Both the position numbers and the translations under genes were made by a program. 7,021 nt of DNA, from IMG/VR virus record IMGVR_UViG_2681813316_000021; one strand, given 5' to 3'. Positions 966 through 6,964 of the stretch are shown here, in pieces. Numbering within the stretch: position 1 is the stretch's first letter; the number at the start of each line of letters is the position of its first letter. This stretch comes from a virus. Its lineage: Duplodnaviria > Heunggongvirae > Uroviricota > Caudoviricetes. The notes below the pieces were generated by a model that was not told the DNA's origin, searched no databases, and worked only from the letters and a program-made list of their open reading frames with translations.

Positions 966-1387
966 AAATCAAGCATGAACACATCCGCATGGCGATGAAT
1001 GCCTGGGCGCGTCCTGATGGCGAAAAAGTTCCGGCAGCTGGAATAACCCAGGCTTATTTTGAGTTGGGTATGACGTTTCCTGAACTGTACGACGACAGCC
1101 ATCCGGAAGCCCTGGCTCGCAATACCCAGAAAATTTTCCGCTGGGTAGAGAAAGACACCCCTGATGCTGTTGAAAAAATTAAGGCGTTGTTGCCAGCGAT
1201 CGAAAAGGCAATGCCACCTTTGCTGGTGGCCAGAATGCGCAGCCACAGTTCAGCTTATTTTCGGGAGCTGGTGGAGACGCGGGAGCGATTGGTGAGAGAC
1301 GCTGATGATTTTGTCGCAGTGGCAATCGCCGGTTTCAATCAGATGAACCGTGGTGGCCCGGCAGGAAATGCTGTGGCAGTACATTGA
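962..1387 (+). CDS. YdaT/CII-like phage regulatory protein, 141 aa
   Basis: Sits directly after the cro-like gene and is translationally coupled to it. The N-terminus MKIKHEHI and the length recall Rac-prophage YdaT-family proteins; this is from memory, not a search. Confidence 0.5.
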   Translation: MKIKHEHIRMAMNAWARPDGEKVPAAGITQAYFELGMTFPELYDDSHPEALARNTQKIFRWVEKDTPDAVEKIKALLPAIEKAMPPLLVARMRSHSSAYFRELVETRERLVRDADDFVAVAIAGFNQMNRGGPAGNAVAVH

Positions 1388-1458
1388 CTGACAATAGTCA
1401 TATCGAATCGCTTCCGGCAACTCGTGAGTAAAAAGATTCGGTATCAGAAGAGGTGAGT

Positions 1459-2529
1459 ATGGCTAACGCCTGGCTCAGATTATGGCATGACATGCCAAAT
1501 GACCCTAAGTGGCGAACAATTGCCAGGGTGTCAGGGCAGCCAATTGCAACAGTGATGGCAGTGTATATCCACCTCCTGGTGAGCGCGTCACGAAATGTCA
1601 CGCGAGGTCACATTGATGTCACGACAGAAGATTTGGCAAGTGCGCTCGACGTGACAGAAGAGGTAATTGATTCAATTTTGCAGACGATGCAGGGGCGGGT
1701 ACTTGATGGTGATTTAATCACTGGATGGGAAAAACGCCAGGTGCTTAAAGAGGACAACGGCAATATTTCGCAAACCGCAAAATCTCCGGCAGAGCGCAAG
1801 AGGGCGCAGCGTGAGAGGGAAAGAAAGCGGGAACAAAATGGCGATTGTCACGACGCGTCACGAAATGTCACGCACATGTCACGACGAGTCACGACAGATA
1901 AAGATACAGATAAAGATACAGATCAAGAAGATCAAAATACTATGGTTCATGGCGTAAAAAACGCCACGAACCAGGCAGGGGATGTTCAGACCGTCAACCC
2001 TGGTCAGCCAGCAGGCACGACACCGGAAGCCGATTCAGCGTATGCGCTGAAAGCCGATTCGGGCGCTGTGCAGCAGGTGATGACCGCAAGGCCGGAGCAA
2101 TCACACCAACTGCAGCAGCCTGAAGCCGATTCCGCCATTCAGCGGGAAGCCGATCGGGTAGTCCCGGAAAACACCGGGCAGCCTGTGGGACGAGTGGATT
2201 ATCCGGATGTGTTCGAACAGATCTGGCGGGAGTACCCGTTGCGTGCCGGGGCAAACCCGAAGAAATCCGCTTTCAGTGCCTGGAAGGCCAGATTACGCGA
2301 GGGGGTGCCACCAGAGGCCATGCTGGATGGCGTGAGGCGTTACGCAAGATACCTGGCGGTTACCGGGAAAACGGGAACGGAATTTGTTCAGCGAGCGACG
2401 ACGTTTTTTGGACCGGACCGGAATTTTGAAAACCCCTGGTTGCTCCCGGTAAACGGCACGAACAACCAGCGTTGTGTGAATCATATTTCTGAACCGGATA
2501 CCGAAATTCCGCCGGGCTTCAGGGGGTAA
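1459..2529 (+). CDS. Putative phage replication initiation protein (lambda O-like role) with iteron origin inside the gene; ATG at 1459 preferred over GTG at 1453
   Basis: GAGGTGA Shine-Dalgarno before the ATG at 1459. Two clusters of GTCACG iterons and an AT-rich tandem repeat lie inside the ORF. Acidic, low-complexity linker (DKDTDKDTDQEDQN). C-terminal segment FEQIWREYPLRAGANPKKSAFSAWKARL resembles a motif I associate with phage replication proteins. Confidence 0.6.
   Translation: MANAWLRLWHDMPNDPKWRTIARVSGQPIATVMAVYIHLLVSASRNVTRGHIDVTTEDLASALDVTEEVIDSILQTMQGRVLDGDLITGWEKRQVLKEDNGNISQTAKSPAERKRAQRERERKREQNGDCHDASRNVTHMSRRVTTDKDTDKDTDQEDQNTMVHGVKNATNQAGDVQTVNPGQPAGTTPEADSAYALKADSGAVQQVMTARPEQSHQLQQPEADSAIQREADRVVPENTGQPVGRVDYPDVFEQIWREYPLRAGANPKKSAFSAWKARLREGVPPEAMLDGVRRYARYLAVTGKTGTEFVQRATTFFGPDRNFENPWLLPVNGTNNQRCVNHISEPDTEIPPGFRG
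1584..1623. repeat. Iteron cluster 1: four GTCAC(G/A) repeats at about 10-11 bp periodicity (1587, 1597, 1607, 1618), plus an inverted copy CGTGAC at 1650-1655
   Basis: Direct reading. The 20-bp block CGCGTCACGAAATGTCACGC at 1584-1603 recurs exactly at 1854-1873. Confidence 0.6.
1847..1894. repeat. Iteron cluster 2: five GTCACG repeats at about 10-11 bp periodicity (1847, 1857, 1867, 1878, 1889)
   Basis: Direct reading. Contains the exact 20-bp repeat of cluster 1. Helical-turn spacing is typical of initiator binding sites. Confidence 0.65.
1897..1938. repeat. AT-rich tandem repeat (GATAAAGATACA twice, then GATCAAGAAGATCAAAAT) immediately downstream of iteron cluster 2; candidate DNA-unwinding element
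   Basis: Direct reading. AT-rich tract adjacent to iterons, the same arrangement as in the lambda-type origin. Confidence 0.45.
2027..2154. repeat. Four direct copies of AAGCCGAT (2027-2034, 2051-2058, 2123-2130, 2147-2154), arranged as two pairs each 24 bp apart
   Basis: Direct reading. The copies fall in the Pro/Gln/Ala-rich linker of the replication protein (peptide-level repeats PEADSA / KADSG / PEADSA / READR). Confidence 0.4.
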
Positions 2530-2569
2530 GTGTTTATTTCAGGTCATGAGGTAATTTTCAGGAGGACTT

Positions 2570-2992
2570 GTGGCAAAAGTATTTACACAAGAAGAGCGAG
2601 AAAAAATTAAAGGGCAGGTTGTTGAACTCGTACGCCAGAGTGGGCGTGAGACGTTACGACAACTGGAAGTCAAGACAGGTGCGACAAGATATCTGATGAG
2701 CGTTCTCGCGAGAGAGCTGGTTGCCAGCGGTGATGTATACAATTCTGGTTACGGGTTATTCCCGTCTGAACAGGCGCGTAAGGACTGGCAAAATGCCCGT
2801 AAAAAGCTCTCAAGGGCAAAGCTGAAGAAACCATCTGCGGTTGATCCGGACCTTATCTGGTCATTACCTGATGGAGAAATACGTCGTTACGACAGGCATC
2901 ATAATATAATTTGTACTGAGTGTCGTAAAAGCGAAGTTATGCAGCGCATATTGTCGTTTTATCAGGGGAATGTTCGGTATTTATTAAAGTGA
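2570..2992 (+). CDS. Hypothetical small basic protein, 140 aa, GTG start, with C-terminal HHx3Cx2C motif (possible metal-binding or DNA-binding regulator)
   Basis: ORF track. AGGAGGA Shine-Dalgarno upstream of the GTG at 2570. Host-like base composition. I do not recognise a family. Confidence 0.5.
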   Translation: MAKVFTQEEREKIKGQVVELVRQSGRETLRQLEVKTGATRYLMSVLARELVASGDVYNSGYGLFPSEQARKDWQNARKKLSRAKLKKPSAVDPDLIWSLPDGEIRRYDRHHNIICTECRKSEVMQRILSFYQGNVRYLLK

Positions 2993-3301
2993 CGAGATTA
3001 AAATGCATTAGTTAAGATGTGAATTGACATTTTGTGGCACAGGATAGAGCTATCGTGGTTGTCCGCTTTGTGCCAGAAGCGGAAGTTAGAAATTATCTGC
3101 CAACCGATAAGATGGCTGCCTAAGTCGTAGCGATTCAGCACTGTTTTAGCGGCGCTCGATTGCAAAGTCGTGCTTTGCTGACTTGCGATTGTGCTCTTTA
3201 CGAGCAAAGCTTTCAGGTATAGTAAGTGCTAACTGTAGTGTAAAATTATAGGGATAGATGAAGAAAACAACGAGGCTTTAGCTAATCTTTGCAGTTGTGT
3301 C

Positions 3302-3310
3302 TGCTATAAT
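3302..3310 (+). promoter_or_regulatory. Candidate extended -10 promoter element TGcTATAAT about 80 bp upstream of the large ORF
   Basis: Direct reading: TG at 3302-3303 and TATAAT at 3305-3310. No good -35, which is tolerated for extended -10 promoters. A GAAGGGA Shine-Dalgarno precedes the ATG at 3392. Confidence 0.35.
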
Positions 3311-3391
3311 AAGGCGAAATTTTATCTGCATGATTTTGTTTGATTAACTCCGAAAGCCAGCTCTCTCGGTGAAGATTGGGAAGGGATATCA

Positions 3392-6300
3392 ATGAGTGAT
3401 GATAGCTATAAATTTCAAAAGTTAACTCCGTTCAGCGATGTTGAGCTGGGTGTATATAAAAATGCGATAGATTTTGTTTTTGCCAATAACGATCTAAAAA
3501 ATGTTGCGATATCAGGGCAATATAGCGCAGGAAAAAGTAGTCTTATCGAATCCTATAAGAAAAGTCATTCAAATATAAAGTTTGTTCATATCTCACTTGC
3601 TCATTTCAGATCGATTGAGGAAGCTGAAACTAATGAACCAAGTAAAGATATAAATGAAACCGCGTTAGAAGGTAAAGTTCTTAACCAGTTAATTCACCAA
3701 ATTAATGCTGATGATATTCCCCAGACACATTTTAAAGTAAAGAAAAAAATAAAAACTAACAACATTGTGATAAACACCATCTTTACGGTGTTATTTATCG
3801 CCATGATACTACATATCACGCTATTTAATAAGTGGGAAAAGTTTGTTTCACTTTTATCTGAAGGTAATATAAAGACACTACTTACATTATCAACTAAATA
3901 CGATACGCTTTTAATTAGTGGGTTTATATGTACTATCCTATCTTGTATTTTCATTTACAAGTTAATAAAAATCCAAAAGAATCGTAATGTTCTTAAGAAA
4001 ATAAATTTACAGGGTAATGAAATAGAGATTTTTGAAGAAAGTAACGAGTCTTATTTCGATAGATATTTAAATGAAGTATTGTACCTTTTCGAGAACGTTG
4101 ATGCTGATGCCATTGTTTTTGAAGACATGGACCGTTTTAATAGTAATAACATCTTTGAACGTCTTCATGAGGTTAACAGACTGGTTAATATTCAACGGGA
4201 CACAGCAGGGCACAAGAAATCGACGTTACGTTTTATTTACTTGCTTCGTGATGATATCTTCATTTCGAAGGATAGAACCAAATTCTTTGATTATATCATT
4301 CCAGTTATTCCTGTTGTTGATAGTTCTAACTCTTACGATCAGTTTATCACACATTTTGATGGTGGTGGTATTCTCAAGTTGTTCAATGAAAGATTTCTAC
4401 AAGGGATGTCTTTATATATTGATGATATGAGAATATTGAAGAATATTTATAACGAATTTCAAATTTATTATAACAAATTAAACACGACAGAACTTGACTG
4501 TAATAAAATGTTGGCCATTATTGCCTATAAGAATATTTTCCCAAGAGATTTTAGTGAGTTGCAACTTAATCAAGGTATGGTTTATACCATATTTAGTGAA
4601 AAAGACAACCTTATTATTGAAGAAATAAAGAAAATAGAAAAAGATATTAGAGATAGAAAAAAAGAGATTGAGGCAATCAATGATGAAATACTCAACTCTA
4701 GTCAGGAGGTTGATGCTATATACGATAAGGAATTATCTAGATATAATAATCATCCTCACTATAATCAGGCTGAGAAAGCTGATATAGCAAAGAGAAGGGC
4801 GGCTAGAAAAGAAAGTGTTGAAAATAAATTTAATGGTAAAATAGAAGAAATTAATGAGCTTATATCAAGATCAAGAGAAAGTTTGGTTGATTCTAGAAAC
4901 AAAAGACTTAAAGAAGTAATAACTAGAGAAAACATTGATGAAATATTTAAACTCACCTATACCAATGAAATTGGAGAGGAAAGAGACTTTAATGAAATAA
5001 AAAGCAGTGAGTATTTTGACTTGCTTAAATACCTTATTCGTGATGGTTATATTGATGAAACCTATACCGACTATATGACCTATTTTTATGAAAATAGCCT
5101 GAGTCGAATTGATAAGATGTTTTTACGCAGCATTACCGATCAAAAAGGCAAAGAGTTCACTTATCAACTCAAGAACCCCAAGCTGGTCGTTGCCCGCCTT
5201 CGAGAAGTGGATTTTGAACAGGAAGAGGCGCTTAATTTTGATTTATTAGCTTATCTGCTTCAAACGCCAGCCCAGGTAAACTTAATAAAACGTTTATTCA
5301 AACAACTAAGAAAAGATAGAAGAGTTGAGTTTATTCGTGGTTACTTTGAAACTGAGAGGGCTCAGCCTGTCTTCATTAATCGATTAAATACACAGTGGCC
5401 TGAGTTTTTTTCTTATGCGCTGACAGAGAGTGAATTTTCTGCTGATTGGGTTAAACTCTACTCTATAGGCACGTTTTATTATTCTGCCAATGACGCCATC
5501 GAGGCCATTAATATTGATGATTGTCTGACTGATTACATCTCTGATTCGGCAGGTTATTTAGCAATATCAGAACCGAAGGTTGACAAATTAATTAGTGGTT
5601 TTAAGTTGCTTAACGTCTCTTTTGTCAGTATTAAATTTGAAAACGCAAATAAAGTACTCTTTGATGCGGTTTACCAGCATTCACTTTATGATATTAATTT
5701 TTCCAACCTGACCTTAATGCTGAGTAAGGTTTACACGCTTAATAGTGAAGATGATATTCGCCATAAGAACTATACACTAGTGATGTCACAACCTGATTCT
5801 CCCTTGGCTAGTTATGTTAATAACCATATTAGGGACTATCTGGATATGGTTTTATCTAGTTGTGATGGTTCAATCGTGGATGATGAATCCATTGTTTTAT
5901 CCGTTCTTAATAATGAGGGAATATCTGATGAACAAAAAGGCCAGTATATAAACGCTTTGCAAACTTTCGTGACATCTCTGAGTGAGGTTGAGAGCGAATC
6001 TTTATGGTCATCTTTGTTGGATAAAGATAGAGCAGTGTGCTCTGAGGAAAATATTGTCTCTTATTTTGAACATGTTGATGGACTGGATGACTCACTTATC
6101 GAATTTATCAATAGAACTGATGTAGACCTGAATTTTCAAAATATTAATATTGATAACGAGCTTAAAGGTAAATTATTTAAATCGATTGTTATCTGTAATG
6201 ATTTATCAAATGATAAATATGAAAAATTAATTTGCTCACTAAATATTATTTGTAAAGCATCCTTTAGCGCTAGTAATATCGCGAGTGATAAGTTCAAAAT

Positions 6301-6964
6301 ATTAGTGGATAAAAATATTATTCGTATGAATGTTGCGCCACTTAATTTCATACGAGATAACTATTCAGAGCAACTTTCCTATTATATTCATAAGAATATC
6401 AGGGCATACGTTGAATTAATGACGATTGATAACTTTATTTTGGATGAGGCTATATCAATACTTTCTTGGAAAGTTGATGATGATTTGAAAGTTAAGCTAC
6501 TCGAGTTTGTTAAAACTCCGTTGGCTATTTATAGTAAGAATTACTCTCAGGTCGTTAATGACTATATTTTAGAAAATAATTTTAAACCAGATGAACTTCT
6601 AATCTTGACGTCATCTTATAAAACTTGGGGAACCTCTACTCAGTCGCTCATCTTGAGTCGAGCAATACAGGATATATCAGCATTGATAGCAAGTCCTAAT
6701 GATGTTTCTGAACCGTTACTAAAAAACCTGTTTGTCGCAGAGGGACTGAATATGCAGAATAAAATAGCACTGCTAATCGCTTTGTTGCCGGGTAAGGATT
6801 TGAGTAAGACGACTTGCAAAGAGTATCTTGATCTGCTTGGTTTATCGGAGTTCAGTAAAATTTTGGGGCGAGGCAAACCTAAAATTGAAGTTGATTCAAC
6901 TAATCAAAGTTTATTAACAGCATTAAGGAAGGTGCGAATAAGCGGGGAAATTCTTCTCGGCTGA
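3392..6964 (+). CDS. Large membrane-associated P-loop NTPase, KAP-family-like (PifA/YobI-like architecture), 1190 aa; candidate anti-phage defence protein
   Basis: Uninterrupted 3.57-kb ORF. Walker A GQYSAGKSS (aa 42-50, nt 3515-3541). Two hydrophobic helices at about aa 125-145 and 173-192 (nt 3764-3826 and 3908-3967). Walker B-like AIVFEDMD (aa about 241-248, nt about 4112-4135). Charged coiled-coil-like segment at about aa 400-510. Strong AT bias and AAA/AAT/ATT/GAT-rich codon usage, unlike the upstream genes. Confidence 0.8.
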   Translation: MSDDSYKFQKLTPFSDVELGVYKNAIDFVFANNDLKNVAISGQYSAGKSSLIESYKKSHSNIKFVHISLAHFRSIEEAETNEPSKDINETALEGKVLNQLIHQINADDIPQTHFKVKKKIKTNNIVINTIFTVLFIAMILHITLFNKWEKFVSLLSEGNIKTLLTLSTKYDTLLISGFICTILSCIFIYKLIKIQKNRNVLKKINLQGNEIEIFEESNESYFDRYLNEVLYLFENVDADAIVFEDMDRFNSNNIFERLHEVNRLVNIQRDTAGHKKSTLRFIYLLRDDIFISKDRTKFFDYIIPVIPVVDSSNSYDQFITHFDGGGILKLFNERFLQGMSLYIDDMRILKNIYNEFQIYYNKLNTTELDCNKMLAIIAYKNIFPRDFSELQLNQGMVYTIFSEKDNLIIEEIKKIEKDIRDRKKEIEAINDEILNSSQEVDAIYDKELSRYNNHPHYNQAEKADIAKRRAARKESVENKFNGKIEEINELISRSRESLVDSRNKRLKEVITRENIDEIFKLTYTNEIGEERDFNEIKSSEYFDLLKYLIRDGYIDETYTDYMTYFYENSLSRIDKMFLRSITDQKGKEFTYQLKNPKLVVARLREVDFEQEEALNFDLLAYLLQTPAQVNLIKRLFKQLRKDRRVEFIRGYFETERAQPVFINRLNTQWPEFFSYALTESEFSADWVKLYSIGTFYYSANDAIEAINIDDCLTDYISDSAGYLAISEPKVDKLISGFKLLNVSFVSIKFENANKVLFDAVYQHSLYDINFSNLTLMLSKVYTLNSEDDIRHKNYTLVMSQPDSPLASYVNNHIRDYLDMVLSSCDGSIVDDESIVLSVLNNEGISDEQKGQYINALQTFVTSLSEVESESLWSSLLDKDRAVCSEENIVSYFEHVDGLDDSLIEFINRTDVDLNFQNINIDNELKGKLFKSIVICNDLSNDKYEKLICSLNIICKASFSASNIASDKFKILVDKNIIRMNVAPLNFIRDNYSEQLSYYIHKNIRAYVELMTIDNFILDEAISILSWKVDDDLKVKLLEFVKTPLAIYSKNYSQVVNDYILENNFKPDELLILTSSYKTWGTSTQSLILSRAIQDISALIASPNDVSEPLLKNLFVAEGLNMQNKIALLIALLPGKDLSKTTCKEYLDLLGLSEFSKILGRGKPKIEVDSTNQSLLTALRKVRISGEILLG

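Follow-up and report, generated by a model that had tools for sequence, protein, structure and literature searches.

Two iteron arrays and an AT-rich tract as a putative replication origin inside the initiator gene of a Rac/Qin-like prophage of Escherichia coli

A 7,021-nucleotide stretch of viral DNA (Caudoviricetes; IMG/VR record IMGVR_UViG_2681813316_000021), referred to below in its full length as the window, carries a replication initiator gene (1459-2529, + strand; 356 amino acids) in which the hexamer GTCACG recurs in two separated arrays, and the question raised by this locus is what a repeated DNA word does, twice, inside a protein-coding sequence. An earlier note on this DNA, made from the letters alone, had proposed a lambda-type replication origin embedded in the initiator gene. 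Judging from sequence comparisons, we consider it likely (probability about 0.7) that 1584-1973 is the replication origin of a Rac/Qin-like prophage located inside its own initiator gene, with two iteron arrays of which the second would act with an adjoining AT-rich tract in unwinding and the first would most likely cooperate with it. The proposed origin inside the gene is supported by frozen synonymous sites, by concerted changes of the repeat word, by the position in linker-coding sequence and by a minimum of duplex stability. The start codon is likely ATG 1459 rather than the alternative GTG 1453, which the earlier note had taken, because homologues begin MAN(A/S)W.

GTCACG was found 10 times in the window (1.7 expected; largest count in shuffled sequences, 5), and eight of the ten copies lie on the + strand in the two arrays. 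Array 1 (1584-1626, + strand) consists of four direct copies of GTCAC(G/A) at 1587, 1597, 1607 and 1618 (spacing 10, 10 and 11 bp), the copy at 1607 reading GTCACA and the other three being exact. Array 2 (1844-1896, + strand) consists of five exact direct copies at 1847, 1857, 1867, 1878 and 1888 (spacing 10, 10, 11 and 10 bp; nt 388-434 of the open reading frame, ORF), and was returned by Tandem Repeats Finder as period 10 with 5.0 copies at 1846-1896. The copies of the 6-bp core within each array are therefore placed one helical turn apart. Four and five copies of GTCACG had been claimed; the count holds for array 2 and has to be amended for array 1, and the spacing of 10-11 bp, the two clusters and the exact 20-mer common to both (CGCGTCACGAAATGTCACGC, 1584-1603 and 1854-1873, 270 bp apart; 0 expected by chance) were all recovered. 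A single inverted core (1650-1655, − strand; CGTGAC on the + strand) lies about 30 bp downstream of array 1, and a homologous locus with the word GTAAC (L028) has GTTAC, the inverted form of its own word, at the aligned position (ORF offset 212). Beyond the arrays and this inverted copy, one other copy is present in the window, and the immunity region is free of the word.

The two arrays fall in different parts of the protein. Array 1 occupies codons 43-56 (A43-T55, ASRNVTRGHIDVT), corresponding to the end of a helix and the loop preceding a helix-turn-helix, and its GTCAC copies are read in frames 2, 0, 1 and 0, giving differing peptides from one hexamer. Array 2 encodes CHDASRNVTHMSRRVTT, part of a predicted disordered linker. 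ASRNVT occurs twice in the translation, in agreement with the earlier observation that SRNVT peptide repeats are encoded by the repeat sites, and DKDTDKDT occurs once.

Directly after array 2, in linker-coding sequence, lies an AT-rich, purine-skewed tandem repeat that is a putative DNA-unwinding element (1894-1942, + strand; ORF nt 436-484). It is composed of 2.9 copies of the 12-bp unit ACAGATAAAGAT (Tandem Repeats Finder, 1894-1928), which encode DKDTDKDT as described before, followed by CAAGAAGATCAAAATAC. The least stable 40-bp duplex of 1301-3000 was located at 1899-1939 (−1.10 kcal/mol/bp; gene mean −1.47, standard deviation 0.10), and the GC content and purine fraction of the tract are 0.29 and 0.71, compared with 0.26 and 0.67 for the AT tract of lambda. 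The start of the tract, GATAAAGAT, is fixed at synonymous sites (D147 is GAT in 21 of 21 homologues and K148 is AAA in 18 of 19). Two GATC (Dam) sites were read from the sequence of the tract at 1921-1924 and 1930-1933. A DnaA box in the tract was considered and rejected, with matches at 5 of 9 positions only. An inverted repeat follows at once (1943-1973, no strand assigned), in which 12 of 13 stem positions pair around a 5-nt loop; as single-stranded DNA it folds with −12.3 kcal/mol (z = −5.3), and by analogy it may correspond to the inverted repeat found after the AT tract in lambda ori. When inverted repeats after the AT tract were scored across the family, the hairpin score, a crude one, was 4.7 against 4.1 for the control.

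Is the repetition kept for the DNA or for the peptide? Homologous N-terminal domains were collected from 38 genomic loci of many proteobacterial genera and, in addition, from Pseudomonas and Aeromonas phage records, and a synonymous-site test was applied to 23 homologues with the GTCAC word (64-99% amino acid identity; Escherichia, Pseudomonas, Aeromonas, Bordetella, Serratia and others). Mean normalised codon entropy was 0.036 for codons whose third base lies inside the motif (n = 10) and 0.79 elsewhere (n = 70; Mann-Whitney p = 3e-7). The frozen codons of array 1 were TCA for S44 (22/23), GTC for V47 (23/23), ACG for T48 (23/23), GGT for G50 (23/23), CAC for H51 (22/22) and GTC for V54 (23/23), those of array 2 were CAC for H131 (21/21), TCA for S134 (23/23) and GTC for V144 (23/23), and V65, the codon of the inverted copy, was GTG in all 20 homologues compared. 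Conserved residues outside the motif take nearly all synonymous codons, and the spacer codon R49, which is free to vary, provides an internal control. Rare codons such as TCA and CGA are retained even in the homologue of Pseudomonas phage phita81A. The comparative evidence is strong that both arrays are under DNA-level selection in addition to the constraint from coding, with the reservation that a freeze of synonymous sites does not separate DNA-level from mRNA-level selection. Homologues that keep the protein and lose the repeats from the DNA had been named as evidence against an origin; the opposite was found, the repeats being conserved at the DNA level.

Further IMG/VR loci were then added, giving 343 loci in 77 sequence clusters (a first IMG/VR scan yielded near-identical E. 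coli copies only and was rerun with divergent queries), and the core word was typed as the dominant core in ORF nt 105-270 and nt 300-600. The word types of arrays 1 and 2 were GTCAC/GTCAC in 42 clusters, GAACG/GAACG in 22, GTAAC/GTAAC in 7 and none/none in 6, and no cluster was discordant. Because both arrays carry the same word, they behave as sites for one specificity determinant, for which the winged-helix domain that this DNA encodes is the obvious candidate. A rough neighbour-joining tree from which the loop residues were excluded requires at least eight changes of word type, the count being approximate and liable to inflation by recombination.

The same loci indicate that the arrays evolve through gain and loss of units. 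Spacing of copies within arrays was 10 bp in 277 cases, 11 bp in 78 and 21 bp in 18. The length of the array 1 loop differs among homologues, one of which (L006) has six copies instead of four, that is, 21 bp and seven residues more. Since spacings of 10 and 11 bp alternate, expansion in frame is possible only by 21-bp steps (two units, seven codons), and in-frame expansion was seen solely as 21 bp, as in L006. One extra 10-bp iteron in array 2 of L177 (ORF 73-546) causes a frameshift and a product of 157 amino acids, with the C-terminal part continuing in another frame; counts of ORFs of 155-157 amino acids, among which L177 was the one read through, suggest that about 6 of the 343 loci carry such a truncation. 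The +1 frame peptide encoded in the window by the ORF 1811-1957 (SRQIKIQIKIQIKKIKT) recurs at the end of three database proteins (P0007, P0012 and P0027).

Two kinds of loci are devoid of iterons. A subclade from Entomomonas and Ventosimonas metagenome-assembled genomes and an unassigned IMG/VR contig (L030, L033 and L037, and L145, respectively) keeps the N-terminal domain and the GATAAA/DKDK tandem, and recognisable iterons are absent from both positions and from the rest of these four loci. L039 and L041 have an insertion of about 100 amino acids in the linker (ORF nt about 320-700) and neither array; the insertion gave a weak, below-cut-off match to a MUG113/GIY-YIG-like nuclease (E 0.004). 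Displaced iterons were searched for in the iteron-less loci and none were found.

The initiator is laid out as an N-terminal winged-helix domain, a disordered linker and a C-terminal DnaD/DnaT-like part with a DnaT-like tail. It matches phrog_3729, 'replication initiation protein', with E 9e-256; PHROG matches to the C-terminal half are named DnaD-like helicase loader or primosomal protein, and other PHROG matches replisome-organizer. The AlphaFold model of residues 1-170 (51-sequence alignment; mean pLDDT 71, and 84-97 in the N-terminal domain) has a helix at 29-45, a loop at 46-55, the helix-turn-helix helices at 56-63 and 67-77 and then a hairpin wing, with predicted disorder from residue 129 (pLDDT < 50 for 129-170). 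Searches of the initiator against Pfam, NCBIfam and PDB sequences gave, the DnaT-like tail aside, no family above cut-off; in Pfam no family was obtained at E <= 0.01, and just HTH_Crp_2, Phage_rep_org_N and PhyR_sigma2 at E <= 10. Alignment by hhalign with gp47 of Enterococcus phage phiEf11, a member of PF09681, revealed a weak likeness (probability 63%, E 7e-5, 113 columns). Homology to lambda O was rejected, as there was no Pfam match to the O family and the domain is replisome-organizer-like. The term lambda-type used in the earlier note is accordingly true for anatomy, array 2 and the AT tract lying in the linker-coding part as in lambda O, and not for family, because the protein is a replisome-organizer-like winged-helix protein with a DnaT-like tail.

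The C-terminal tail (NNQRCVNHISEPDTEIPPGFRG, 2458-2526, + strand) matches the C-terminal end of DnaT, a primosomal protein of the host. Its last ~25 residues (QRCVNHISEPDTEIPPGFRG) match positions 155-179 of NF002770 DnaT, and the DnaT chains 6aep, 2ru8 and 9zbt were matched in PDB with E 3e-4 to 1e-3; YdaU of the Rac prophage ends in the same tail (IPPGFRG). These matches suggest that the tail mimics the partner-binding tail of DnaT. No helicase or loader gene was detected among the called ORFs of the window by Pfam and PHROG searches, and no P-like or DnaC-like gene lies downstream of the initiator gene, which is followed by a DUF977/Ren-like gene and then a Tmn/YobI-like NTPase gene. Homologues of Aeromonas and Pseudomonas phages with other C-terminal domains have their own replication partner gene downstream. 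The N-terminal domain and the arrays are retained while the C-terminal domains differ among homologues, from which we infer an exchangeable, origin-specific module (N-terminal domain plus arrays) joined to a C-terminal part that adapts it to a helicase-loading route, which in the window would be that of the host.

How far does this arrangement resemble known origins? Lambda likewise has its origin midway along the initiator gene, where the linker joining the DNA-binding domain to the partner-binding domain is encoded (PMC7466680). The O gene holds four iterons at ORF nt 348-432 and then the AT-rich tract (PMC7466680), so array 2 stands at the same relative place. In both, iterons are followed by an AT-rich, purine-skewed tract of ~40-50 bp of nearly equal stability (−1.11 kcal/mol/bp in lambda and −1.10 in the window) and by an inverted repeat (GTCAGAG...CTCTGAC in lambda), and in both the initiator gene comes after a repressor, cro and cII-like block and before a Ren-like gene. 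The iterons themselves differ, being direct 6-bp cores every 10-11 bp in the window and 18-bp inverted repeats about 20-24 bp apart, bound by O dimers, in lambda; the initiator is unrelated to the O family, and the window has no P gene. The number of iterons is six in Stx-phage variants of lambda ori.

A parallel in repeat design is found in Bacillus phage SPP1, whose oriL within gene 38 combines direct repeats, bound by the replisome organizer G38P, with an adjoining AT-rich element for unwinding; a stretch of 356 bp from within gene 38 that includes the repeats suffices as oriL in vitro (PMC5737612, PMC6316719). The SPP1 repeats are located at ORF nt 359-400 inside the organizer gene and are followed by a 9-bp AT-rich tandem. 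Enterococcus phage phiEf11, a bona fide PF09681 member (L003, 2470-2590), has five copies of GTAACG and then four of GATAAAGAnATA (GATAAAGA(A/T)ATA). In both phages, as in the window, direct repeats with a period of ~11 bp precede a short AT-rich tandem, all within codons 120-160 of the organizer gene. The phiEf11 sequence is 80% identical to 1867-1929 of the window over 63 nt (blastn), across phyla, and its word GTAACG is also used by some proteobacterial homologues. Unlike the module of the window, which has neither and bears the DnaT-like tail, SPP1 encodes its own loader G39P and helicase G40P, and the homology of the N-terminal domains of SPP1 and phiEf11 to that of the window protein is weak. 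In lambda, SPP1 and phiEf11, the sequence for the N-terminal domain is free of an upstream array.

Two separated arrays of one Rep-binding word near the rep gene are known from the iteron plasmids P1 (incC/incA) and F (incB/incC), where one iteron set belongs to the origin and the second regulates initiation by pairing or looping. In these plasmids the arrays stand on either side of the gene and control the copy number of a stably maintained replicon, whereas in the window the two lie within the sequence that encodes a prophage initiator; the feature seen in common is the bipartite layout. Literature searches for this prophage origin or its repeat word returned no prior description; the in-gene design is known from lambda and SPP1, and for the second array no earlier description was found.

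The Rac prophage has the same gene order (racR-ydaS-ydaT-initiator-...-DUF977), but its YdaU belongs to an unrelated N-domain family (DUF1376) and Rac also encodes the DnaC-like YdaV. An active origin, oriJ, has been reported for Rac (PMC3945230). The linker of K-12 Rac ydaU (L356, 2620-3477) holds TGTTCAAAC-like repeats and then AATAAAGATACAGATAAAGATC, with a C7-TAAAT-C7-G5 palindrome after the tandem, and these in-gene repeats may be Rac oriJ. Both ydaU and the DUF1376 initiator gene of L350 (2800-3090), which are unrelated to the initiator gene of the window, thus contain in-gene repeats followed by CAGATA or GATAAAGATACAGATAAAGAT tandems; in L350 the repeats form two groups separated by about 217 bp, with six copies of CAGATA after the second. 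The L350 and K-12 Rac ydaU sequences hint at a possibly wider occurrence of bipartite layouts within initiator genes.

For the window, the following course of initiation is proposed. The N-terminal winged-helix domain would bind every copy of GTCACG from the same face of the helix. On array 2, oligomers would distort the DNA and open the adjoining AT-rich tract at 1894-1942, as lambda O does at ori-lambda and G38P of SPP1 at oriL, and the C-terminal part with the DnaT-like tail would then recruit host DnaB (with DnaC). Array 1, about 230-260 bp upstream in the sequence coding for the DNA-binding domain, would offer further binding sites to the same domain; its most likely part would be cooperation with array 2 through looping or wrapping of the intervening DNA, and it may also, or instead, feed back on expression of the initiator gene.

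Several results weigh against this proposal. The initiator fell short of the organizer families, with E 0.12 and 12.8 bits for PF09681 (Phage_rep_org_N; cut-off 23.3) and E 0.016 and 15.4 bits for TIGR01714 (cut-off 49.8), and in a Foldseek search of the N-domain model against PDB the winged-helix matches were non-significant (best E 0.27). Six related clusters have no recognisable iterons in either place. The distance between the arrays ranges from 168 to 350 bp among homologues, and a seemingly non-random helical phasing between them (resultant R = 0.63 at period 10) was set aside, as it is confounded by gain and loss of 10-bp units and by relatedness. Array 1 may not be needed for origin firing, since lambda, SPP1 and phiEf11 have a single array. 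Finally, fusions of the N-terminal domain to an HNH nuclease (~180-193 amino acids), located just upstream of DUF1376 initiator genes (L350, 2100-2660; L352, 3001-3546; L353, 399-935; L354, 239-820), have neither array 2 nor the AT tract and yet retain array 1 at the same offsets with the word matching their subfamily (GTCAC x4 in L350, L352 and L354, CGAACGC x3 in L353), which points to a role of array 1 independent of the unwinding element. Array 1 is clearly selected and tied to the N-terminal domain as judged from these sequences; either it acts in its own right, perhaps as a self-operator, or N-domain segments were re-imported into the HNH fusions from initiator genes.

The best-surviving alternative, although we regard it as unlikely, is built on some of these points. 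The origin would consist of array 2 and the AT tract only, and array 1 would be a self-operator through which the initiator, binding its own 5′ coding sequence, limits its own and downstream synthesis by roadblock or titration. Retention of array 1 with its subfamily-matching word in the HNH fusions, the absence of any upstream array from the origins of lambda, SPP1 and phiEf11 and the variable distance between the arrays all speak for such an operator. On the other hand, a promoter scan gave sites no more numerous than in shuffled sequences and no promoter-like site near array 1, the strictly concerted change of words is expected under either model, and the HNH fusions could have acquired their N-domain segments by recombination.

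It is much less probable that the arrays are sites for another factor or process, such as terminase/packaging, a recombinase or a protein of the host, or that they act as an element at the RNA level (GUCACG in the mRNA). The synonymous freeze would be compatible with mRNA-level selection, and the binding protein is deduced from sequence; but the word co-varies with the winged-helix subfamily encoded by the same gene, the position and the adjoining AT tract match proven origins, the word is missing from the immunity region and nearly so from the rest of the window, and no Rfam match was obtained. That the repeats are a by-product of a repeated peptide (SRNVT/VT) needed by the protein, with no function as DNA, can practically be dismissed: ASRNVT does occur twice and the loop peptide is conserved in homologues, but third positions are frozen only inside the motif, which contradicts it, array 2 lies in a predicted disordered linker, rare codons are kept in phita81A, and a peptide repeat cannot explain a hexamer that array 1 reads in three frames as different peptides.

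A more far-reaching version of the two-array origin is improbable but may be stated. The array 1 loop would be encoded by the binding sites of the very domain to which it belongs, so that word and protein would change by the same substitutions, and array 1 might be a landing pad that captures the nascent N-terminal domain, leading to cis-preferential loading and to linked switches of specificity and origin. The DUF1376 layout (an upstream array, about 220-260 bp, and an array with a CAGATA/GATAAA tandem, in L350 and possibly in Rac YdaU) would then make this a general bipartite in-gene design.

With the two-array origin as the preferred reading, the locus is a case of dual coding in which protein sequence, iteron word, helical phasing (10 + 11 = 21 bp = 7 codons) and reading frame are satisfied together, and the eight or more concerted changes of its iteron word illustrate the evolution of origin specificity. 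Should array 1 be functional, the lambda/SPP1 paradigm would extend to a bipartite origin reaching into the sequence that codes for the DNA-binding domain. The words GTCACG, GTAACG and CGAACGC would predict groups of incompatibility and cross-activation among co-resident prophages, and a minimal origin plus initiator could be used as a replicon module independent of a helicase loader. About half of complete E. coli genomes contain a match to the gene (2743 of 5426; RefSeq name "phage replisome organizer"), and no description of its origin was found in the searchable literature.

The window as a whole spans the region for immunity and replication in a lambdoid, Rac/Qin-like prophage of E. coli. 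The initiator gene is preceded by a repressor gene (212-631, − strand), a Cro-like gene (711-965) and a YdaT/CII-like gene (962-1387) and followed by the DUF977/Ren-like gene (2570-2992). A 400-bp non-coding gap (2993-3391) without an Rfam match, Rfam having returned nothing across the window, separates the latter from a low-GC gene for a YobI/Tmn-like P-loop NTPase of 1190 amino acids (3392-6964, + strand). The NTPase matched the Pfam YobI-like P-loop NTPase family with E 6e-123 and the PADLOC Tmn model with E 8e-67, and the gene is probably anti-phage defence cargo placed after the replication module. Identity of the initiator region to that of phages Tritos, Evi and 204576 and of several vB_Eco isolates is 95-99%, and phage Tritos has a different gene at the position of the NTPase gene.

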